Sequence record: MW741821.1
Length of the DNA: 64,000 nt
Strand: one strand, 5' to 3'
DNA from: Escherichia phage vB_EcoP_DE5
In this document: piece by piece, positions 14,163 through 43,900 of the stretch
How positions within the stretch are numbered: the stretch's first letter is position 1
How the letters are laid out: every line of letters begins with the position of its first letter
Notes under the pieces: model-generated
Databases searched by the model: none
Told to the model about the DNA's origin: nothing
Seen by the model: only the letters and a program-made list of their open reading frames with translations
Position numbers and translations under genes: made by a program

Positions 14163-14238
14163 GTGGTGCGCCCTACAGGACTCGAACCTGTAACCAATAG
14201 CTTAGAAGGCTACTGCTCTATCCATTGAGCTAAGAGCG
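14163..14238 (-). tRNA. tRNA-Arg (anticodon UCU)
   Basis: Hand-folded 76-nt cloverleaf on minus strand: acceptor GCGCUCU/AGGGCGC, D-arm GCUC/GAGC, anticodon stem GUAGC/GCUAU with loop CUUCUAA, T-arm ACAGG-UUCGAGU-CCUGU, discriminator A, encoded CCA. Confidence 0.75.
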
Positions 14239-14414
14239 CAGAATTATTTAGATCATATCTCGCTTGGTGATATGACCACATGTTTTACATCGAAGTATAT
14301 AACGAGTACCTGTGTCTTCTATTTGACCAATCTCATTATATATGTGTAAACGAACTTCTTTTATTGTCTCCCAATCATGCAGATGGAATAGACGTTTAAA
14401 CCACTTGAACATAA

Positions 14415-17673: not shown

Positions 17674-18063
17674 TTATTCCCTAGAGCTATTATCGAACAC
17701 TAAATCACCACAATACATAGGATTGGCATACCATTTTGGCACCCCTTCGCTCTTACTCTGAAAGTAAGTCCCACTGTACAGCGGAACATAATTCTTCTTA
17801 AGGGCACGTTTAGCTAGCCTCTCGCTTTCTCCAATGGCTTGCTTAGTCATCGGATTTTTATCACGAATCAGCTTTACATAACGTTTATAAGGTTTCTCCT
17901 GTTTTAATAGTACCGGAATCCACTCAAACTGGTTCTTTTGTCTTATCACCTGTTCAGCGGTCAGTTTTCGTTGGGCCATTCTATTTATCACGGTATCCGC
18001 AACTAAAGCCTTACATGCGGTTGGCTGATTCCCTGCCTCATAATAAATAGTCAATGTCAACAT
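17674..18063 (-). CDS. cell-wall hydrolase, SleB/CwlJ-like
   Basis: YYEAGNQ...ALVADTVINRM...QKNQFEW...PKWYANPMYCGDLVF matches the Hydrolase_2 pattern. Confidence 0.55.
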   Translation of the reverse strand: MLTLTIYYEAGNQPTACKALVADTVINRMAQRKLTAEQVIRQKNQFEWIPVLLKQEKPYKRYVKLIRDKNPMTKQAIGESERLAKRALKKNYVPLYSGTYFQSKSEGVPKWYANPMYCGDLVFDNSSRE

Positions 18064-18112
18064 TAGCTGTGCCGTTGTTATCAGAACTTGATACCTCCTG
18101 TTTTACGGGCAT

Positions 18113-18138
18113 AAAAAAGCCCCAGCCGTAGCCGGGGC
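18113..18138 (-). terminator. putative intrinsic terminator
   Basis: GC-rich hairpin (GCCCCGGC/GCUGGGGC, one mismatch) followed on minus strand by six U. Confidence 0.5.
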
Positions 18139-18449
18139 AAACCTGAAAGCAACACATGACCGTTGCTATAAATACACTCGCAAATGCACTTACAGCAACG
18201 CAAAAAGCCGCTCAAAGGCGGCTATGCGGAAGCTTCAAATGGGGAGAGGGCACGACGCGACAGAAAGAGCGTCATAGTACTAAAAAGAGAGGCTATTGGA
18301 GAGGTTACTTATTGCCTTCCTTAATGCCTTGTTTTCTTGTTTAACCAATTCGTTTTCTTCTTGCAAGGATGCTACCAGATGGACCAGAACATCAACTACT
18401 GCATCACCTTGCCGCATCTCTCTGACTTTATTTAGAATCTCTGAATAAA

Positions 18450-18893
18450 TCATTTTACCCTCGCCTCTTTGATGGGGTCGATGTATTTCTCAACGCCCCA
18501 CTTGTGTTTACTATCTGCGTAGAAAACATCAGGTGCACATTGGCTTGTTTTAGGGAAGGCTTGCGGGTCTTTCGTGCTCCCCTTAAACTTCTGTTTACCT
18601 CGAGTGCGACCATTACAGAAGATTTCTAACTTCTTCTCCTCTTCTGTTTTAGCTCCCCCGCTCTGTAACAAAGAACGTTTATGATCAGCTAACAACAACG
18701 CATCAGCCCGATGGACACGATGGCCTACACGTTTTGCCACACTGGAAGGAACATGGGATTCAGCCTCAGCCTTTGCAGCACGACGTTTTAAACTACGCTT
18801 ACTAACGTGATTAGTTGCCTTCGGTTTCTCTTTCTCCAGTTCAGAGATAGAAAAACAACGCCCGCCCTTCATGCTGATTTTTGATTTAGCCAC
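18450..18893 (-). CDS. hypothetical basic protein (147 aa)
   Basis: Lys/Arg-rich ORF. Confidence 0.4.
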   Translation of the reverse strand: MAKSKISMKGGRCFSISELEKEKPKATNHVSKRSLKRRAAKAEAESHVPSSVAKRVGHRVHRADALLLADHKRSLLQSGGAKTEEEKKLEIFCNGRTRGKQKFKGSTKDPQAFPKTSQCAPDVFYADSKHKWGVEKYIDPIKEARVK

Positions 18894-19168
18894 AATCTTA
18901 TTCCTTTCAGTGATAAGTTATATCGGGCAAGCCCATCAAGTCGATAGGCTTGAACAAATAACTTAATCAAGTAAACTAAATGACTTCCAACTGCGTAGCA
19001 GGATTGTACCATCATCCATAACTACACTTAATTGCAATAGTTTTTTGTTGCAACTACTCACCGTTGTAATTCGTCCGGTTGTACTTTTACCTTTATTGCT
19101 GTAAAGATATACAACACGACGGCCTAACAAGCGGGAAGGTGCTTTCTTAAATGCTGAAATGTTAGTGA

Positions 19169-19393
19169 TCATAATGCTTGATACCTTTGAATGTGTTCAA
19201 TACGGGTGGATTGAGCAAATGACGCTTTAACAGCCATTTTCCTAACTTCTTCTTTACGCTGGTTAGTGTGTACAGTATCCCAATGATTGTTATCACGTTG
19301 GCGCTGTAATATCTTACTACATTTGCGATGGTTTCCCGTGCTGCGATGTTTCTCACAAATAGGACACTTGCCAAAATTACTACTGAATATCAT
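19169..19393 (-). CDS. small zinc-binding-like protein (74 aa)
   Basis: CPICEKH...HRKC motif. Confidence 0.35.
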   Translation of the reverse strand: MIFSSNFGKCPICEKHRSTGNHRKCSKILQRQRDNNHWDTVHTNQRKEEVRKMAVKASFAQSTRIEHIQRYQAL

Positions 19394-19617
19394 TTTCTCA
19401 ATCCCAGCTTTCTTAAGATACGGCCTAACGTTGTTTCTTGCGTGATAATATAGCTGATCGCTTCACGTTCCAATGTTTCAATCTTCATTGGCGACGGATA
19501 CCATTCACCGGTAATAACACATTTACATTCAACGCCATACTTTTTAGATAGGCGGTAATGTTGACCGTTGACAAGATTTCTATAAATCGTGGTATGTGTA
19601 ATTAACATGATCGTCAC
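19390..19617 (-). CDS. hypothetical protein (75 aa)
   Basis: ORF with 4-nt overlap to downstream ORF. Confidence 0.4.
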   Translation of the reverse strand: MTIMLITHTTIYRNLVNGQHYRLSKKYGVECKCVITGEWYPSPMKIETLEREAISYIITQETTLGRILRKLGLRK

Positions 19618-19661
19618 CTTTGATTAGATTCTTTGATTAATGCACTGAATCAATGCACTGA

Positions 19662-19697
19662 TAAAAGAAAAGGCGCTACCCGTTAAGATAGCGCCTT
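19662..19697 (-). terminator. putative intrinsic terminator after 19720-20628 gene
   Basis: 9-bp stem AAGGCGCTA/TAGCGCCTT with 10-nt loop, followed on minus strand by UUUUCUUUU. Confidence 0.55.
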
Positions 19698-19719
19698 ATG
19701 TTTATTCAAATTGTCTTAC

Positions 19720-20628
19720 TTATGCCGCCTGACGTGCCGCCATAATTTCAGCCGCTTTACGCAACACTTCTTCCTCTTCTGCTTTCGCCGCTTGTTCGGT
19801 ACGGGTAGCAACCGTTGAAGAGATACGACCGCGCAGACTTTCTAACTTCTCCTGCATAGCTGCAACAGTCTTTTCCATTTCATCAGCGTATGAATCGAGT
19901 GATTCTAATTCCTTGCTTGATGCGTTCATCAGATAATCATCCGAGATCGCTACCGTTGAGGCCGTGACTTTCTTGATGAGTGAATCAAAGGACTTTTTAA
20001 CCTTCCCAACTTCTTCACTCAGGGCGATAGTGTTATCGCTAGTTGCGCCGTTGCGCTCATCAGCCAGTAATTTGGCTTCAATACGGATTGCATTCAAGCG
20101 TTCAACTAAAGCGTAAATATCCTGATTAAAATCTTCCTTGTTTTTCGCCGGAATTTGCAGGTGTGCCGCCACGTTGTCATTACAACCCTTGTAAAAGTTA
20201 GGGTTATCAACTTCAATTTCACGGCCTAAAGCAAAGTTTTCGAAAGCGTTTGACCAGCGAGCGCGGTTTTGTTCCATTTTGGCCTTAATTTGTGCTTCTT
20301 TCGCGTCTTCTTTAGCTTTCGCCTCACCTTCCAGATTAATCCACTTTTTACGACCATTTGCCGCATCGGTGTTAAACTTGATAGGAGTTAAGAAAGTAAT
20401 TGCAGTGGCAATCACATCCATATCACGAAAACGTTCAGTTAACAAGAAGTCAACCGCCGTCTGCAATACGTCCAGCTTTTTACCGTTACTGCGGAAGTGC
20501 TGCAAGTGCCCTAACAGGAAGTTAGAAACATCTTGTTTGATCGCCGCGTTATTGCTACGAATGTTGTTAGCCAGTGCGTTAAAACCAGATTCTTTTACCA
20601 GATTAAAGATTTTAGCCATGATATTCAC
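19720..20628 (-). CDS. hypothetical protein (302 aa)
   Basis: First long ORF of the leftward transcription unit; Ala/Lys/Glu-rich C-terminal region. Confidence 0.5.
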   Translation of the reverse strand: MNIMAKIFNLVKESGFNALANNIRSNNAAIKQDVSNFLLGHLQHFRSNGKKLDVLQTAVDFLLTERFRDMDVIATAITFLTPIKFNTDAANGRKKWINLEGEAKAKEDAKEAQIKAKMEQNRARWSNAFENFALGREIEVDNPNFYKGCNDNVAAHLQIPAKNKEDFNQDIYALVERLNAIRIEAKLLADERNGATSDNTIALSEEVGKVKKSFDSLIKKVTASTVAISDDYLMNASSKELESLDSYADEMEKTVAAMQEKLESLRGRISSTVATRTEQAAKAEEEEVLRKAAEIMAARQAA

Positions 20629-21442
20629 CTTTCAATTGTAAGGGCGCTATTGCCCCGCTCTCTATGAGCTTGTTTAAGTCACTATTAACTTAACTATAAC
20701 CGCTAACTATTCAGTAGTTATAGGTAAGTGGGGCGGTCTTATCAGGAGTTAACCTTGCCGCCCCCTTATCCGTGATGTTTCATCTGGTATCTTTAATTAG
20801 TCGCTATAAACGAAGCCGACCTGATAGCGATGATCAATCATCACAATAAGGCAGTGCGTCCGACTCTAATTAGTTACGTTATTGTAACCGTCGGCAATAT
20901 CGTTTACTTTGCTTTCGCTCTCGCCTATCCTTTTATATCAACTCTCAATCGCTAGTCATCGCCCACTACGGGATACTATTGCGAAAGAGTCATTGACCGT
21001 CTAATGTTCCGACGTTTTATATCTTTCGGCAAGTTTACTACATAAACCGACTATGTACTTTCATCATAAGATGAATCTCAAGCCGTTCACATCGTAAACG
21101 TTCACACTAAACCTTATTGTTAAATAGCAATTTGCCACTTTTTAACCACTCCCCGCCGCTCTCAATTGAGCGTTAATTCGTCGGGATTGCCTACCCTGAT
21201 TAACTTCTTTCACCGTAGCACCATGTTAGCGATGACCGCCGCTACCCTTAACCGTGGGCGATTAGCTTAAGCCTTTGCGTGTACTCGATGAATCTGTTTA
21301 TCAGTGGTGACGTTTCCAGTAAGGGAATGTAAAACTGTTTACCCTGATAATTTAGGGAGTTTTACGCCGTTTTATCTGGTATGTTATCCGATGGTTATTA
21401 TCATCTAACATATTCAACCGATATAGGAGAATGTTTAAATTA

Positions 21443-22057
21443 TTAAAGAGCGGTAAATCTATCAGTGTGCTTTCTCACACTATGCAACTGTTAGCCGTTG
21501 TTACGCTTTTCACTGAAGCGATGATTTGCTTAGTGAGTGCTCATTATGAATCATGTTGTTTTCGCTGTCAACCGCTTTTTAATCTTTTTTCGTCGTTCCC
21601 GCTATTGGGAGGATATATCAATCAGCTTTATTTGATTGAAGATTAAGCGGTGAGGCTTAACTTATGACTCATATTGTTAAAGAGCGTTTAGCCTTTTAAA
21701 GTGTCTGCTAATCACTGTCACATTGAAGGCTTACTGATTCATTAACAGGCCGCCTACACCTGAACTAATCGCTGCACTATGTGCCACCTTTCCCGCGATA
21801 CGTTGATTTGGGAACTAGTTAGCGATGTTTTGCTAACTTGTGGTTAGTATGGACTACTTTAACCACGTTTGCAACTCTTTTTATCATCTTCTTTTAATTC
21901 CTTTCCCTTATCTCGCGTGAATCTATGCGAAAGGGCAAGATGATAAGTTTTTAAAGAGCGGGATTTTTTAAGTCATCGCTGACTATGCTCACTATATATC
22001 AGGCTTTTTCTGGTGTCAATACTCTTTTTAAGTATTTTCACTTTCTAGCCTGATTTT
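21443..22057. repeat. dispersed direct repeats of TTAAAGAGCG(G), four copies
   Basis: Copies at 21443, 21677, 21951, 22047; inverted partial copy (GAGAGCGGGG) at 20653-20662. Confidence 0.6.
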
Positions 22058-22404
22058 TAAAGAGCGGGGCAAGTTTCCTTGCCTTGTATGTTTTTCATCG
22101 TACCCGATGAATTGAAGTATACGCCAACCAATGTGTAATGCAATAGGGTAAAGCAAATTATTTTAAACTTTTTCATAGTGGGATAGGTAAAAGAACGCGC
22201 ACGCGTGATACATCATAGAAAATAGCTTGTAAAGCATTATTTAACGGCCTGTAACGCATCACAACGAGCTAAAGGAGGGTAAGGAATACAATCACCTTAG
22301 AAATGAGAAAAGCCTCACTAGGAGGCTTACAGGAAGGATTTAAAGCAACAGATACAGTAGGACCATAGGCATGACTACGGCACAATATAGGAGAAAGATT
22401 AAGC

Positions 22405-22782
22405 CTATGGATTTACACATTGACCTAAACCGGACTCAATTTCATTCATGGACTCATCAAAGAGCGTCAACGATGAGCGCATCAAGTGATCTATCGTGAT
22501 TTGTTTACCGGTAGTTTCATTTACCAGCAGAATAGCTTTGTTATCTGATTGCACATGATCAAAATCATTTACATGCAAAATAATAACTTTAGGTGACTGT
22601 TTACCAGTTTCATAGTTTTCTATCAAATAGGTGCACTGTAAACTGTCAACCGTAGCAGGGGAGAACATTGCAGCCTTAACACTACCCATAGACGATAGGA
22701 GAACGCCCAGCAGGAGAACGACAAGGAAGAAGCCCACGAATACTTTTACTACAAATTTGATAATACCCATGATAATAATCAC
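22405..22782 (-). CDS. predicted membrane protein (125 aa)
   Basis: Long hydrophobic N-terminal segment (FVVKVFVGFFLVVLLLGVLL). Confidence 0.45.
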   Translation of the reverse strand: MIIIMGIIKFVVKVFVGFFLVVLLLGVLLSSMGSVKAAMFSPATVDSLQCTYLIENYETGKQSPKVIILHVNDFDHVQSDNKAILLVNETTGKQITIDHLMRSSLTLFDESMNEIESGLGQCVNP

Positions 22783-22867
22783 CTATAGTTAGAGAATATA
22801 AGAATAAAGCATATCAGCGACGAATAACGCCACTGTAACGACGAACAAGCAACGCCAAAAATAATCA

Positions 22868-23143
22868 CTATTCATCGTTGCTATTCTCGCCAAAAAATGC
22901 TACGCTAATCTGTTCCACTTCTTCCAGCGACAGGAGAATCCCGCGTTGGGCTAAATACTTCCCAACAGTTAGATAATCTTGCACTAAACAGACAATAGGA
23001 AAGCGTATATTTTGAATCTCACCTTTGGAAAGAAAAGACAAATATCCAACGTCGATTGATTCATCAAAGGACAATGTAACGCCACCGTAATTATGCGTAT
23101 CAATTAACGCAATAGTTTCATTTCCCATTGGTATCATCCCCAA
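22868..23143 (-). CDS. hypothetical protein (91 aa)
   Basis: ORF in minus-strand cluster. Confidence 0.35.
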   Translation of the reverse strand: MGMIPMGNETIALIDTHNYGGVTLSFDESIDVGYLSFLSKGEIQNIRFPIVCLVQDYLTVGKYLAQRGILLSLEEVEQISVAFFGENSNDE

Positions 23144-23384
23144 TCAGACCATGATTAAGCAGGTTAGCCAGCGACAAATCACCGTCAATATAGATTGATC
23201 TGAAATCATCGCGGGTAATTTCGAAATCAGCAAAGGCTAGCCAGTCTTTAAGAGGCTGATATTCCATCCTGCAAAAAGTGATAACAGGCAAGATTATCTG
23301 ACCATCAAGTGTATTAAACATGATAGAGCTTCCACCAACAAAACAAGAAAAACCGTTAGATAATTTAACTTCTTTAATAGCCAT
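23118..23384 (-). CDS. hypothetical protein (88 aa)
   Basis: ORF in minus-strand cluster. Confidence 0.35.
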   Translation of the reverse strand: MAIKEVKLSNGFSCFVGGSSIMFNTLDGQIILPVITFCRMEYQPLKDWLAFADFEITRDDFRSIYIDGDLSLANLLNHGLIGDDTNGK

Positions 23385-23410
23385 TTTTTACACTCCCAAA
23401 AATAGATTAT

Positions 23411-23902
23411 TTACTTACTAGCCTTAATACAGTTGGCTAAATTAACGTGAACAGTATAAACAGCATTATCAGCATTATTGTAAACAGTGGTGGCGATCAT
23501 CGACTCATTAACTGGGCCATAACTCACTAGATTGGTTACAGCTTTAACATCTTCGTAACGTTGTACAGTGCCATAAGTCACCATATCCGCATCGTTATCA
23601 GTACGCTTGAGAACTAGATCACTGTTAGGCTGATTATCTAACGTTTTAGATTGAAAGAGAACGCCATCATTAGTAACGTTGCTAAATTTCATCTTTAGCA
23701 CGGTATTATTGCCGTCACTATCCGCACCGTTGCAAATCATCCAACCCTTATTGATGGAACTAGAGAAGACACTAGCCGCATCAGTTGCAGGAGCAGGACT
23801 AGCGATAGCCTTATCAGAAAGAGATGTGACCAGTGCACTAACACCGATAGCTGCAACCAGTGCATAACTTGCCAGATTAACTACCTGCATTGCTTTAGCC
23901 AT
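23411..23902 (-). CDS. predicted secreted protein (163 aa)
   Basis: Signal-peptide-like N-terminus (LASYALVAAIGVSALVTSLS...AIA), Asn/Thr-rich mature part. Confidence 0.5.
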   Translation of the reverse strand: MAKAMQVVNLASYALVAAIGVSALVTSLSDKAIASPAPATDAASVFSSSINKGWMICNGADSDGNNTVLKMKFSNVTNDGVLFQSKTLDNQPNSDLVLKRTDNDADMVTYGTVQRYEDVKAVTNLVSYGPVNESMIATTVYNNADNAVYTVHVNLANCIKASK

Positions 23903-24100
23903 TTCGTTATTCCTTAGATAGATTCAATCAACTGTCATCAACTATATAATAAAGGAAAAGGCTGTCAACCATCTATTTTCTAACTTTCTTGCATCCTCCT
24001 GAAAACTAAAGGAATTTAATTTGCTAAACTTTCCATACTCAGAGAATCAGCTTACTTCTTATTGTTACTTTATAACACTACGGGTAACAGACCAACAGAC

Positions 24101-24507
24101 CAGGACAAACGGGGATACAACAACCGCAGGACAGACCACGGGGAAACATAGCAAGATAGTGCGGTAATAATATACCACTTAAATAATCATCAACTCATAA
24201 AAGAAAAGACCATTCGCTACGCTCATAAAGGCACGCTGAAAAAGAAAAGATTAAAAGAAATACAATCATCCACTTAATTAATACATACATCATTATTGCA
24301 CTCATAATCATTACTATTGAAACTATTTACATTCAAACTATGGGGGATGTGGGCTATTACTTATGGGTATTATTAGCCTCTTATGGTAGTGCCTGTACAG
24401 TGCTAGCCTTTCTCTCACTCTCTAAAGGGGAACTAAATAAACGGGTAGCTAATGAATAGGATGGTATACACGGGGAAAGAATAACGGGGAGTAGGCACGG
24501 GGAAACG
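24101..24507. repeat. dispersed repeats ACGGGGA(A/T)A (about 5 copies) and ACAGACCA (3 copies)
   Basis: CACGGGGAAA at 24137, 24469, 24496; related copies at 24105 and 24484; ACAGACCA tandem at about 24087-24102 and again near 24131. Confidence 0.55.
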
Positions 24508-24903
24508 CTGGAACGTGGAAGGAGGTGTAAAGGCATTGCCAATAACCCTTTTTTAAATGAGGACTCCCCCCTTTTAGGAAACGCGCGGGAAGCGCCTAGC
24601 CCCACTCGGTCAAATCAGAATTTTAAACTCTTATATATAAGGTTAAGTATGAATCTAATTAAAGTATTTAGACGGATGAAGTGTAAGCACAATTACTATC
24701 TTCTTCGTAAAGCTTACGGGGATGAAAGAATACATGGTCTCTACCTATCAACATGGAAGTGTAAGGAATGTGGTAAGTTGAGATTCAGTACATGGGTTGA
24801 CAGACCAGTCAGTAGGCCTTAATGGAAATAATCTTTTGGTTAGTAATAGTCTTCTGTTTATTCATCTGCTTCTCTATAGCAAGATGTATCAAGTATGACT
24901 AAT

Positions 24904-25009
24904 GACATGGCCTTTATGAAGTCCCCTTTATGACATGCCCTTTACTTCAGCGTACACGGGTTGTTGGTATGAGGTGGCCTTTACGGGTTGGATATGACTA
25001 GCCCTTTAT
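24904..25009. repeat. array of 14-bp repeats TGAC(A/T)NG(G/C)CCTTTA (3 tandem + 2 spaced)
   Basis: Units at 24904, 24917, 24931 contiguous; further copies ending 24983 and at 24996-25009. Confidence 0.6.
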
Positions 25010-26607: not shown

Positions 26608-28149
26608 ATGTCATTAGATAAACAAATTTATGAAGCTCTAACTGGTAACAACCTTAGTGTAGACGAAAAGAAAGCACTATTGAATATGTTGAAAGAGCGT
26701 GACCAATGGAGGAAGTATAATAGGATTTTGTCTTTCAAGGCGTATGACTTCCAAAAGAAATTTTATGCAGCAGGATTGAAGCATCGCTTTAGGTTCTTGT
26801 GTGCAGCGAACCGTGTTGGTAAATCTTATAGCGAGGCATACGAGTTTGCTTGTCATGTCACAGGTCGCTACCCAACTTGGTGGACAGGATATAAATTTAA
26901 AAGACCTATCTTAGCATGGGCAGTTGGTATTACAGGGGATTCCACAAGGAAGGTATTGCAAAAGGAATTGTTTGGTACACCTATCGGAAAGGATACAAAT
27001 TTATTAGGGACAGGTGTCATTCCTCGTGATGCTATCGTCATTGATACGATAGAACGAGATGGTAACAAACTTCAAATCGTACAAATCAAACATCAAAATG
27101 AGAGAGGAGAGTTTGACGGTTTAAGTACATTAGAATTCCGTTCAACCCAACAGGGTGAACACACATTGATGGGTGCAACAGTTGACTACATTTGGTTAGA
27201 CGAAGAAGATCCATACGAGTCTATGGCTATATTCGCACAGTGCGTCACACGTACACTCACAACTAAAGGTCTAGTTACAATTACAGCTACACCAGAGAAC
27301 GGTTTAACTGAACTGGTAGATAAATTTATGAAAGGTGAAGGAGATGAGAGCACAGGTTCTCTATATTTCCAGAATGCCTCTTGGTGGGATGCTCATGCAG
27401 ACCTAGGTGGACATATCACTGACCAAGATATAAAAGATATGACTGAAGGTATTCCAGCGTGGCAGTTAGAGATGCGTTCGAAAGGTATGCCATTGTTAGG
27501 AAGTGGTTTGATTTATGATGTATCGGATGACACAATTAAATGTGAACCATTCGAAATTCCTGATACGTGGAAACGTGTCTGTGCAATTGATATTGGTATT
27601 GATCACCCAACTGCTGCTGTTTGGACAGCTTACGATGCAAACACGGATACTATCTATGTTTACGACTCATATAAAGAAGGTGGCTTTACTCCAGTGTATC
27701 ATGCTCCAGCTATTAATGGTCGTGGTCAGTGGATTCCTGTCATCCTACCGCACGATGCGGACAATATTGAGAAAGGTAGCGGTTCATCTGTTGCTCAATT
27801 CTATAAGAATGCAGGAGTTAACGTACAGAGTGAGACCTTCTACAACAAAATTGGAATGGATGGTAAAAAGAACTTCTTTGTAGAACCGGGAATCACAGAT
27901 ATCCGAGAAAGAATGATGAGTGGACGCTTTAAAGTCTTTAACACAGCCGCTAACGCTAAGCTATTCGAAGAGAAAGCTAGATATCACCGTAAGGTTGGTA
28001 AGATTATTAAAGAACATGATGACTTAATGGATGCAATGCGCTATTCAGCGTGCTCTGTTACACATCGTGGTCGCTCTAAGCATGACGTTAGCTACGGAAG
28101 TGCTTCTTTGTATGAGGCAAACGTAAGCAGATGGAATCAGAGTTACTAA
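26608..28149 (+). CDS. terminase large subunit
   Basis: Walker A-like CAANRVGKS, Walker B-like YIWLDEED, C-terminal nuclease-like region; position before portal. Confidence 0.8.
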   Translation: MSLDKQIYEALTGNNLSVDEKKALLNMLKERDQWRKYNRILSFKAYDFQKKFYAAGLKHRFRFLCAANRVGKSYSEAYEFACHVTGRYPTWWTGYKFKRPILAWAVGITGDSTRKVLQKELFGTPIGKDTNLLGTGVIPRDAIVIDTIERDGNKLQIVQIKHQNERGEFDGLSTLEFRSTQQGEHTLMGATVDYIWLDEEDPYESMAIFAQCVTRTLTTKGLVTITATPENGLTELVDKFMKGEGDESTGSLYFQNASWWDAHADLGGHITDQDIKDMTEGIPAWQLEMRSKGMPLLGSGLIYDVSDDTIKCEPFEIPDTWKRVCAIDIGIDHPTAAVWTAYDANTDTIYVYDSYKEGGFTPVYHAPAINGRGQWIPVILPHDADNIEKGSGSSVAQFYKNAGVNVQSETFYNKIGMDGKKNFFVEPGITDIRERMMSGRFKVFNTAANAKLFEEKARYHRKVGKIIKEHDDLMDAMRYSACSVTHRGRSKHDVSYGSASLYEANVSRWNQSY

Positions 28150-40938: not shown

Positions 40939-43900
40939 ATGGCGCTGTATCCAATAAAGTCGCTAGGTGCTGTAGGCGTTATCGCTGATCAGGCTCCGAC
41001 AGACTTAGCTCCTAATGCTTTCACTAATGCTATAAATGCTCGATTTGTTGAGCAGAGAGTCTTTAAGACGGGGGGCAATGCCCCTCTTTCTTATGTAGAT
41101 GAAGATAAGGATTTAACCCCTCTGTCTTTCGTTTCTATGCCTTTCGATTATTATAGCGCAGGTAATAGCTTTCTTGTTGTAGGTACAAATAAGAAGTTAT
41201 ATAAACTGACAGATGAAAGCTTGACTGATATTAGCCGTAAGGTTGCTACAGTCACTAAGAAGGCTTCTGCCTCAATTAAGATTTATCCAGTTGTTTCTCA
41301 GATCGTTCCTAAAGAATCAACTATCTCAATGAACTTCAATCAGACCAAGAATCTAGAGGTTTCTCTTCTCCCTGCTGATGCTAATAATACTGATCTTATT
41401 TGGGAGGTTAGTAACTCAGCCTATGGAAGTATTACGGTAGACCCTAGTGACTCTAAACTTGCTACTCTAACATCTTTTGAGAAAGAGGGTAATCTTGTAG
41501 TAACTATCTCTACTGCCAATGAATCCGTAGTGGCTCAGATTGCTGTTAATATCATAGATGGTGATTCAGGCATCTTCTTGAGTCAAGATACTGTTACAAT
41601 TCGTAAGGGAGGGACTACTACTCTCACGGCTGTTACTGGCAAGACTCCTGTAACTTGGTCCAGCAGTAACGCTTCTATTGTATCCGTAACTCCTAACGCC
41701 AACTCTTTAACTGCTGTCATTACAGCGAATGGAGAAGGTAATGTAACAATCACTGCTGACAACGGAACTAAGACTGCTTCTTGTGAGATTGTTTCTATCC
41801 CTCAGATTGATAGTATCTCTTTAAGCCAGTCAGATGTTACTGTGAGTAGAGGTTCTCAGTATATCTTAACTGCTACCCTTTCTCCTGCTAACGCCCCTAA
41901 TCAAAATATTACTTGGACCTCTTCTAATCCAAATATTGCAACAGTATCAGGGACTAGCACACAAGGGACGATCAACGCTCTACTTGCTGGTTTTACTGAG
42001 ATTACAGCTACCACTGAAGAAGGTAACAGAGTTGCTGTCTGTACTGTACGTGTGGACTTAGCTGGAAGGACAATGAGAACAAGTGCTATGGCATTTGCCG
42101 CTCCTGTATCAGAGTCAGTAGAAACTCAAGAGGAAGAAGTAGTAACTCCTCCTGAAAGTGAAGAGACGGTTTATTTTGCTGAGCCTACATCCGGTATTGA
42201 TACGTCAGGGATGTACGAAGGTAATAACTTCTATGACTACTCTAACGTGAATGACATTGAAGGTTTTGCAAGAGCTTCTTTACTGGCAACCCCTTTGTCA
42301 TCTGTAACCTTAGATGTTGTCAGCGCCTCACTTGATGTTGGTGAAGAGATTGTTATCACAGCTACAGCTTCTCCAGAAGGTGATTATTCTTATCAGTGGT
42401 CTGTTGATAAGACTGGTTATGTTTCTACAACTTCAGTCACTGGTAAATCTATCAAACTGGTTGCTCTTCGTAAAGGAGAGATTAACGTAACATGTACTGT
42501 CAGTCAGATGACTCAGAAGGATTACGATGCTTTTGATGATTATCCTTGGTATCACGCTGTTATCTCTAACTGTGCAGTTGCTACAACTCACTATGAAACT
42601 CCTCAGGTAAAAGAATTCGAATCAGAATACTTTGTAGATCTTCCGGGATGGGGTGAGCAAACAGTTGTCGATAATGACGGGAACCCTTCAGTCAAGAAGT
42701 TTAACTGGAAATGTGAAAGAGTAAGATCTTTTAACAACCGTCTTTTTGCTCTAAACATGAGAGAGGCTAACGCTTCTGGTGTTACCACTAACTACCCGCT
42801 TCGTCTTCGTTGGTCTAACTTTGCCAATGAGAATAAGGCTCCTACACTGTGGGATGACTTTGCCTATGATCGAGTTGTGTCTTCGGACTTAGCTTCTAAC
42901 ATCGTAGGGCAGACTCAGGCTCTAGAGAATGGATATGCTGGTTACATTGACCTAGCCGATTCTAATGGTAGCTTGATTGATATCCTACCTCTTAAAGACT
43001 ACTTGTTCGTTTATACAGAGTTTGAAACGTATATTGGTTCTCCGACTAATAACACGTACCAACCTCTAATGTTCAAGAAGCTCTTTAACGACTCTGGTAT
43101 CCTCGCTCCCGAGTGTGTGGTTGAAGTAGAAGGTAGTCACTTCGTAGTTACTCAGAACGATGTAATCTTACACAATGGTGCAACCAAGAAGTCAATTGCA
43201 TCTAACCGTGTTAAGAACATGCTGATTAATGAGGTGTGTCTGGTTAACCCTCTAGCAACTCGAGTACACTTGCATCAGGATAAGAAAGAAGTTTGGGTTC
43301 TGTACGTAGGTCCGGGAGAACCAAAAGAAAGCTTCGCTTGTACTAAAGCTGCTGTATGGAATTATGAGTTTGATACTTGGTCTTTCCGTACTATCCCATA
43401 TGCTCAGTGTATTGGTCTGGTTGATCCTCCTGTTTTAGAAAGAGGTCCAATCTGGTCTGACTTCCAAGAAATCACTTGGGATGACCCATCTATTAAAGAA
43501 CTCGTTTGGAGAAAGGATGCAACAAACTTTAGACAGAGGGTTACGATAGTAGGTTCATTCTTGAAGGGATTCTATCAAGTGGATGTAGGTGCTCTTGATT
43601 ACTTCTATGACAGGCTAAATGATGTTGTTATAGAGAAGCCTCTGGAAATGAGGTTAGAGAGGACTGGTATAGATTTTGATAATGTGACGAATGAGTGGAA
43701 TCAGAAGCATATTAACAGATTCCGACCTCAGACAACTGGCTCGGGTACTTACATATTTGAAGCTGGTGGTAGTCAATTCTCAAATGAATATGGACACCCA
43801 CACACATCTAAGACATATACGATCGGTGTTGACAGGCACGTCTCGGTGAGACTGAACCATCCATACCTTTTCTATAATGTTATAGATAATGATGTTAACA

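Follow-up and report, generated by a model that had tools for sequence, protein, structure and literature searches.

In the ribosomal RNA (rrn) operons of Escherichia coli, the P2 promoter is followed by a leader that carries a boxB hairpin, boxA and boxC, and then by the 16S sequence; boxA, which recurs along the transcript, is the NusB/NusE site of rrn-type antitermination. Here we describe a 1785-bp spacer of Escherichia phage vB_EcoP_DE5 (sequence record MW741821.1) that appears to be built on a similar plan. It occupies 20620-22404 of the 64,000-nt stretch of DNA that was analyzed, referred to below as the window, and lies between homologs of gp125 and gp124 of phage phiEco32, both of which are encoded leftward on the minus (-) strand. 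Our reading, to which we give a probability of roughly three in four, is that the spacer is an rRNA-operon-like early unit, transcribed leftward, in which boxA renders the host RNA polymerase (RNAP) resistant to Rho as it traverses a large structured RNA and proceeds to the early genes. An original prediction for this region had noted dispersed repeats in nearly gene-free DNA and had proposed, as alternatives, a replication origin, packaging or terminal-repeat sequences, a cluster of strong early promoters, or sites for a DNA-binding protein. The observation itself and the promoter option were borne out; the terminal-repeat, skew-based origin and DNA-site options were not.

BoxA is also found outside the rrn operons. 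In phage lambda, the nutL and nutR sites place a boxA shortly after an early promoter, giving rise to a termination-resistant host polymerase; the lambda boxA is a variant, whereas the phage copies described below have the full rrn consensus (TTT). On the bacterial chromosome, a consensus boxA protects the long untranslated transcript of CRISPR arrays from Rho (Stringer et al. 2020, PMC7665894), and in the suhB 5' untranslated region a boxA that adjoins the start codon acts to repress expression (Baniulyte et al. 2017, PMC5725501). These chromosomal sites are single-copy; in the phages there are three to six copies, each behind its own promoter and more than 800 nt before the first start codon.

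Other points of comparison come from phage leaders and phage RNAs. In T7, a podovirus with short terminal repeats, the strong host-polymerase promoters A1-A3 are stacked in a gene-free leader before the early genes. That leader is a few hundred nt long and sits at the genome end, whereas the promoter cluster described here lies ~2-4 kb from the end, contains boxA and is followed by a 0.8-kb structured RNA. The put elements, of ~70 nt, consist of two stem-loops. The put RNA of HK022 is a cis-acting antiterminator (mentioned in PMC7665894), and a structured nascent RNA that follows an early promoter could likewise modify the polymerase itself; the RNA described here, however, has ten times that size and comes with canonical boxA sites, which make an RNA-only mechanism unnecessary. 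GOLLD and ROOL (PMC12286853; PMC5737381) are phage-encoded non-coding RNAs (ncRNAs) of hundreds to more than 800 nt that are supported by covariation and, like the RNA described here, have no assigned function.

A host-type boxA on the transcribed strand

The window contains exactly four plus-strand copies of TTAAAGAGCG, at 21443, 21677, 21951 and 22057, and no other copy in its 64 kb. The original prediction had counted the same four direct copies and had seen that two of them share an identical context, which is TTTTTAAAGAGCGGG. It had, however, read the repeat on the non-transcribed strand. Because the local genes run leftward, the repeat is to be read on the minus strand, where it becomes GCTCTTTAANA, with the extended form (C)CGCTCTTTAA(N)AAT. 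In this direction all four copies are perfect matches to GYTCTTTAANA, the gamma-proteobacterial boxA consensus of Baniulyte et al. (2017, PMC5725501), which rests on the rrn and suhB sites of E. coli. There are six such matches in the window, all on the minus strand and four of them in the spacer, against an expectation of 0.50, and none of 100 shuffled sequences reached six. When the same pattern was applied to the E. coli K-12 rrnB operon as a positive control, it picked out two sites and no others: the boxA of the leader (GCTCTTTAACA) and that of the 16S-23S spacer (GCTCTTTAAAA). Of the four phage copies, three reproduce one of these exactly, boxA-A (22055-22065) and boxA-B (21949-21959) the spacer site and boxA-C (21675-21685) the leader site. 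The fourth, boxA-D (21441-21451), reads GCTCTTTAATA and is embedded in an invariant 18-nt block, AGATTTACCGCTCTTTAA. The two perfect matches outside the spacer, both GTTCTTTAATA, are at 28005-28015 and 43491-43501 on the minus strand.

These copies can be followed through many related phages. The window is ~95% identical to Bas90, SGF2 and other Kuravirus (phiEco32-like) genomes, and the spacer with its flanks shows 90-97% identity to ~97 phages of Escherichia and Shigella that belong to the phiEco32 group, comprising Kuravirus, Suseptimavirus and Nieuwekanaalvirus of the subfamily Gordonclarkvirinae. Each of 21 related loci holds three to six boxA copies, which lie on the transcribed strand barring one stray match in each of two loci (L002 and L005). 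The copies are unchanged where their flanks have been deleted, replaced or duplicated, and indel breakpoints abut them. BoxA-A is conserved in relatives, boxA-B is invariant amid large indels on both flanks, and boxA-C is invariant even though many relatives have a different sequence, or a deletion, on its 5' side. The position of the last copy relative to the gp124 ATG ranges from -825 to -936 nt across the full set of 38 genomes and contigs. By its match to the consensus, then, the repeat is identified as a host-type boxA, the NusB/NusE site of rrn-type antitermination.

An inverted partial copy that had been predicted at 20653-20662 is present as CCCGCTCTCT. It is not a boxA on the transcribed strand and belongs to two small conserved hairpins, H41/H42, of the structured RNA. 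A long-range pairing between boxA-A (22072-22058) and 20664-20650 (inverted repeat I4) shows no covariation, and it was rejected because its 5' arm varies (GCCCCG vs GCTACG in phiEco32) while its 3' arm is invariant.

Dispersed direct repeats in gene-free DNA are typical of origins, and the repeats could instead be DNA sites, such as iterons or operators, at which a phage or host protein binds, with the spacer serving as replication origin. This is very improbable. The copies have a single orientation, lie downstream of promoters and match the consensus of an RNA element exactly, and the rest of the spacer is conserved according to RNA pairing rules with a G-U asymmetry. In addition, a GC-skew analysis places the change of sign at ~24.4 kb, where gene direction flips from leftward to rightward, and finds no inflection in the spacer (an AT-rich unwinding element or DnaA-box cluster was not scanned for). 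A transcript-primed origin within the spacer is possible. The same coordinate disposes of the suggestion that the genome physically ends in the spacer or that a terminal repeat or packaging signal is located there, a suggestion that had in its favor the closeness of this gene-poor stretch to the end of many deposited records. The equivalent spacer of phiEco32 is at 72787-74730 of its 77,554-bp genome, between gene 124 (299 aa) and gene 125, and the 193-bp direct terminal repeat of phiEco32 aligns, with 90% identity, to 24405-24597 of the window, 2 kb outside the spacer. The idea is refuted by this homology. Since the terminal repeat and the change in skew coincide at ~24.4 kb, the window must cross the physical genome ends, as in a circularly closed or permuted assembly.

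Predicted promoters, hairpins and layout of the proposed early unit

A scan with the σ70 consensus found two promoters on the minus strand of the spacer, with -35 hexamers that begin at 22019 and 21571. P1 (21991-22019; TTGACA-17-TATAGT) and P3 (21543-21571; TTGACA-17-CATAAT, with an A-rich tract upstream) each match 11 of 12 positions, and their predicted starts are at ~21984 and ~21536. They correspond to SU10 promoters at 73996 and 73511, respectively, early promoters having been predicted in that phage between CDS120 and CDS121 (PMC4281155), and they agree with the published predictions for SU10 and phiEco32. It is in this sense that the original prediction of a strong early promoter cluster holds. 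Among 29 genomes, P1 is kept or is substituted by equivalent promoters (10-12/12), and the -10 hexamer of P3 is invariant. Upstream, the gp125 homolog is followed by an intrinsic terminator, AAGCCTC-CTAGT-GAGGCTT plus a T-run (22310-22328, minus strand), which was found by a terminator scan and corresponds to the SU10 terminator at 74441 (Table S2 of that work).

Hairpins precede the first and the last boxA. GGCAAG-GAAA-CTTGCC (22068-22083, minus strand), which belongs to an inverted repeat also detected on the other strand, ends 2 nt before boxA-A, and two leader hairpins (21464-21500, minus strand) precede boxA-D: H3 (21500-21485) and the boxB-like H4, AGTGTG-AGAAAG-CACACT (21481-21464), in which three of six pairs covary. 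The order is that of the rrnB leader, in which the boxB hairpin, CGCU-GAGAAAA-AGCG, is followed by boxA.

Promoters and boxA copies alternate. In each of the 29 genomes there are two to four promoters (10-12/12) and three to six boxA copies, with boxA typically at +17 to +40 from each predicted start; P3 and boxA-D keep a fixed distance from the gp124 ATG. In the window, boxA-B is at ~+25 from the predicted P1 start and boxA-D at ~+85 from that of P3. The upstream half of the spacer is a mosaic: cassettes of ~170-190 bp occur in some genomes and not in others, and there are duplications of promoter-boxA modules. For example, when 21700-22100 of the window is compared with the 29 related loci (L001-L029), a cassette after boxA-B is seen in Bas90 and phiEco32 and is missing in the window, ES17 and VTCC211, and whole promoter-boxA modules are duplicated in NJ01, 172-1, Bas93 and LAMP. 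Given breakpoints that abut invariant copies, it looks as if the boxA repeats act as recombination points.

The following sequence of events is proposed. Host σ70 RNAP would initiate at the near-consensus promoters, P1 and P3 in the window and two to four in relatives. Within ~20-160 nt the nascent RNA would present boxA (GCUCUUUAANA), the last copy coming after a boxB-like hairpin as in the rrn leader. By analogy with the rrn operons and CRISPR arrays, boxA would then recruit NusB/NusE(S10) together with NusA, NusG and SuhB, and the polymerase would become resistant to Rho. In this state it could cross ~900 nt of untranslated RNA and enter the long early operon that starts with the gp124 homolog. 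Of the stretch crossed, ~800 nt (21439-20641) is not filler but forms a conserved two-domain RNA, whose folding the Nus complex may also chaperone. The start sites are predictions from the consensus, the binding of Nus factors and the resistance to Rho are inferred from what is established for rrn, lambda and CRISPR transcripts, and a function for the RNA is likewise an inference.

The likeness to an rrn operon extends over the whole unit. Common to both are a strong σ70 promoter preceded by an A-rich tract, a hairpin that has a purine-rich loop and is followed by boxA, boxA sequences that are identical (GCTCTTTAACA and GCTCTTTAAAA), a long structured untranslated RNA after boxA, and the repetition of boxA along the transcript. 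The differences are that the phage RNA resembles neither rRNA nor any Rfam family and that a protein-coding operon of a virulent phage follows it; no boxC-like GU-rich element was identified in the phage unit, for which dependence on Nus factors is suggested by analogy. The lambdoid nut sites share with the phage unit an early transcript in which boxA comes soon after an early promoter. In a nut site, however, boxB is downstream of boxA and is bound by N, whereas the phage hairpin is upstream of boxA, so that the order found is that of rrn and not that of nut. No homolog of the N family is annotated in these phages, although no search for one was made. Unlike the lambdoid phages, phiEco32-like phages are virulent and change to their own sigma factor later in infection (PMC12276001).

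A different use of the boxA cluster would be as a decoy: early transcripts with up to four boxA copies could titrate NusB/NusE/SuhB away from the host rrn operons and so aid host shut-off. The multiple perfect-consensus copies behind near-consensus promoters, three of them identical to rrnB sites, would suit such a role. As the main purpose of the cluster it is nevertheless improbable, given that one boxA after each promoter is the layout expected of cis antitermination and that the last boxA has a fixed position relative to the structured RNA. The two roles are compatible, and we regard the decoy as a minor, non-exclusive alternative to cis antitermination.

A conserved structured RNA downstream of the last boxA

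In contrast to the variable upstream half of the spacer, the region 21670-20620 aligns almost without gaps, with a mean identity to the window of ~0.90. Codon position 3 of the neighboring gene is less conserved (0.757), and in SU7 and UKE3, as lineages, the leader (0.87-0.88) surpasses even that gene taken whole (0.75-0.76). At the level of sequence comparison, the non-coding leader is demonstrably under purifying selection.

The spacer is non-coding. Its longest ORF on the gene strand has 42 aa, in line with the original statement that no ORF there exceeds 70 aa, and a Pfam scan of the spacer gave no match. The notion that unrecognized proteins are encoded here could draw on mini-ORFs with Shine-Dalgarno-like sequences and on a 71-aa ORF on the plus strand (21431-21646). 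In relatives, however, the latter has no start or varies in length between 20 and 71 aa, and the 11-aa mini-ORF that was originally quoted as an example of an RBS-ATG start is intact in just 3 of 29 genomes, i.e. it is not conserved. Among 21 genomes, stop-to-stop frames on the transcribed strand do not exceed 66 aa, and neither the small indels nor the differences in length come in multiples of three. Substitutions track base-pairing and not codon structure. Coding by the spacer can thus be practically dismissed. Most annotators have left it blank; a few place ORFs of 30-40 aa there.

A consensus structure was obtained with RNAalifold from the 29 genomes (alignment A1; segment 21579-20590, minus strand). 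It has 239 pairs in 42 helices and an energy of -241.9 kcal/mol, and standard pairing holds in 99.2% of 6683 cells. Both sides have changed in 78 pairs, a number that none of 500 shuffles attained (35.6 +/- 3.0), and sliding the partners by 1-3 columns leaves 9-13 such pairs; the covariation score is 0.227 vs 0.128. Column-shuffled alignments that were refolded gave energies of -69 to -100 kcal/mol and 6-19 compensatory pairs, and the folding energy of the single window sequence has a z-score of -7.4. When the structure is mirrored to the antisense strand, 764 of 6922 cells are broken, compared with 54 on the sense strand, because many G-U pairs become C-A. This strand asymmetry argues that the leftward (minus-strand) transcript is the selected molecule. 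By the criteria of covariation and strand specificity, the ~0.8 kb at 21439-20641 is thus identified as a conserved non-coding RNA of two domains and ~40 helices. More than half of the supposedly empty region, a point missed by the original prediction, is made up of it.

In this fold, domain I (21141-21439) is a multibranch structure, drawn from the RNAalifold consensus and pair counts, that is closed by H5 and holds H6-H18, including a long arm, H12-H17 (21311-21189). A linker hairpin, H19 (21122-21140), leads to domain II (20843-21120), which is closed by the 10-bp helix H20 and holds H21-H33. Most pairs of H24-H30 in domain II have compensatory changes, and five of six pairs covary in the hairpin 21075-21060 of the same domain. 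A series of 3' hairpins (H34, H35 and H37-H42; 20641-20842) completes the RNA. It includes GGGGCGG...CCGCCCC (20764-20730) and the inverted partial copy at 20653-20662 (H41/H42); H37 and H39 have five covarying pairs each. A scan for pseudoknot or tertiary covariation returned mostly phylogenetic noise, apart from refining the hairpin 21075-21060 and supporting two small helices.

Two further observations concern the body of the RNA. The 14-nt motif AUACCAGAU(A/G)AAAC occurs twice, at 21382-21369 and 20790-20777 on the minus strand; both copies are invariant or nearly so and partly unpaired, and the motif could be a protein-binding or tertiary-contact element. In phage LAMP (L020), insertions of ~21 and ~11 nt together with a local replacement are found in domain II (A1 columns 585-605 and 659-669), and the helices elsewhere are kept; the insertions resemble an expansion segment and mark positions that tolerate insertion.

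The RNA has no counterpart among described families. Over 18000-25000, the Rfam 15 covariance models, including those for GOLLD, ROOL, OLE, group I/II introns and RNase P, gave no hit better than E=0.31, and over 20550-22420 the Rfam hits were at chance level (E >= 1); no tRNA or tmRNA was found in the spacer. The 961-nt leader has no homolog in 5,426 complete E. coli genomes, and its exact core pattern is absent from 185,579 bacterial and archaeal genomes; the pattern was found only in eight metagenome contigs, which are Kuravirus-sized. By these searches the structured RNA is a new family. It differs from GOLLD and ROOL not only in lacking a covariance-model match but also in belonging to Enterobacteria phages, where it is placed in an early operon behind σ70 promoters and boxA. 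It is likewise not associated with a tRNA island, as GOLLD and ROOL often are, since the sole tRNA in the window, tRNA-Arg (anticodon TCT; 14164-14239, minus strand), is ~6 kb away.

Conservation in distant relatives

The arrangement was followed further in nine metagenomic relatives (Logan assemblies) with gp124 homologs of 47-70% aa identity, whose leaders were not used to derive the structure. Where the contig extends far enough, 1.4-3 kb upstream of the gp124 homolog is free of called genes. These relatives have one to three sense copies of boxA (two or three in eight of them; the contig of the ninth, L048, spans just 972 nt upstream), and in them two hairpins are followed, 8-11 nt on, by GCTCTTTAACA. 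Most have an A-rich tract and a TTGACA...(C/G)ATAAT promoter, equivalent to P3, upstream of the module, and the last boxA is at -870 to -936 from the gp124 ATG. The stem sequence of the second hairpin (H4) differs completely between groups; the hairpin and its purine-rich loop persist. That the arrangement has been kept at this distance provides strong comparative evidence of a functional promoter/hairpin/boxA module, and an antitermination signal of the rrn type (NusB/NusE/NusA/NusG/SuhB) would be expected to behave in this way.

The fold also carries over. The distant leaders are 51-65% identical to the window, and under plain sequence alignment 56-82% of the predicted pairs are kept, compared with 31-51% for slid controls. 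L047 has 70 pairs whose two bases have both diverged from the window, and 63 of them can still form. Folded de novo and on their own, the nine distant sequences gave -54.8 kcal/mol and 49 compensatory pairs, compared with -1 to -5 kcal/mol and 0-10 compensatory pairs for shuffles of the set. A covariance model of the H12-H17 arm produced weak syntenic hits (E 0.0045-0.42) in four of five relatives with gp124 at ~70% identity. A scan of IMG/VR with gp124 found only five close loci.

Five of the distant contigs (L040, L042, L043, L045 and L050) have ~3 kb without called genes (locus ~950-4000), from the divergent genes to the gp124 homolog. The analysis of their promoters, boxA copies and RNA covered the proximal 1.2-1.5 kb; the distal 1.5 kb may hold the genome ends.

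Possible roles of the structured RNA

One possibility is that the RNA is not an independent molecule but works purely in cis, as the 5' leader of the gp124 operon, where it would influence mRNA stability, processing or translation and may pair with the gp124 start. There is indeed no intrinsic terminator between the RNA and gp124 on the minus strand, H36 pairs 20788-20779 with gp124 codons 5-8, and one and the same set of 97 phage records, as well as all of the distant contigs, contains both the RNA and gp124. However, ~800 nt and ~40 helices far exceed the known bacterial cis-regulatory leaders, H36 shows no covariation, and the gp124 Shine-Dalgarno sequence is unpaired in the consensus fold. 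Furthermore, co-transcription is compatible with processing to a separate RNA, as occurs with rRNA. A purely cis-acting role is therefore rather doubtful, and a discrete functional early RNA, which is favored by its size and its rRNA-like expression, is somewhat more likely. Tentatively, Kuravirus-type phages might in the first minutes of infection make a large (~0.8-0.9 kb), ornate RNA that is expressed like rRNA, released, and acts in trans, e.g. as a scaffold, a decoy or a ribonucleoprotein that seizes a host process or counters a defense.

Several points weigh against the proposed unit as a whole. The start sites in the window are consensus predictions, and boxA-A and boxA-C lie upstream of P1 and P3, respectively, so they would be transcribed only from promoters further upstream or by read-through of the gp125 terminator. 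The body of the RNA is heavily paired and has more G than C (187 vs 147), and it may thus be a poor substrate for Rho even without boxA. With respect to the fold, the 29 genomes from which it was trained are close to one another (mean pairwise identity 0.877). The outermost predicted helices, H1 and H2, use bases upstream of the predicted start and are probably spurious, and the lack of covariation in H36, mentioned above, counts here as well. Under plain sequence alignment, the most distant group retains just 56-58% of the predicted pairs, and the model of the H12-H17 arm found no hit in L048 or in the group with gp124 at 47-50% identity; parts of the fold may be lineage-specific or mis-drawn. 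Finally, Salmonella phage 7-11, a remote relative in a different family, has no boxA at its right (early) end, and the boxA solution is therefore not general to all phiEco32-like phages. For that phage, antitermination has been postulated with a strategy that is still to be defined (PMC8948821).

Neighboring genes

The gp124 homolog (19720-20629 including its Shine-Dalgarno sequence, minus strand; 299 aa) is the first gene of the main early operon. Its ATG is at 20619, preceded by the Shine-Dalgarno sequence AAAGGTGA (20629-20622), and it belongs to PHROG 13018, a family of unknown function. An AlphaFold2 model is mostly helical (pLDDT 71.7, pTM 0.47). Foldseek found no match to this model in the PDB better than E=0.9, the PDB sequences gave no match, and Pfam gave only weak, sub-threshold, coiled-coil-like matches. 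These analyses provide no clue to a function or an RNA partner.

At the upstream boundary of the spacer, the gp125 homolog (22405-22770, minus strand; 121 aa) is an early gene that appears in the ORF list and is annotated in Bas90, phiEco32 and others. It matches PHROG 13168, labeled 'terminase' in many records. The label is doubtful because the protein has just 121 aa, its gene is in an early-operon position, and it is missing from several Kuravirus genomes (MN05, VTCC211, Bas93 and LAMP).

Implications

No report of the use of boxA by a virulent phage was found in the searchable literature. The boxA sites and the structured RNA of Kuravirus or phiEco32 are likewise undescribed there, the two primary phiEco32 papers lying outside it. 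BoxA is thus a known element in a new setting, a virulent phage, and the RNA is a new family.

If the proposed early unit is correct, it would answer how phiEco32-like phages drive very long early transcripts with an unmodified host polymerase: the boxA of the host rrn operons has been copied behind every early promoter. The structured RNA ranks among the largest covariation-supported bacterial or phage RNAs beyond rRNA and GOLLD/ROOL/OLE. The phages that carry it plate on E. coli K-12, for which the genetics of nus, rho and suhB and the engineering of phages are standard practice, and the function of a giant phage RNA is therefore directly testable; the BASEL phages Bas86-93 would provide a genetically tractable K-12 model for such RNAs. 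In the ~100 deposited Kuravirus genomes, the 1.8-2 kb now left blank or filled with spurious mini-ORFs should carry annotation of the promoters, boxA sites and ncRNA.

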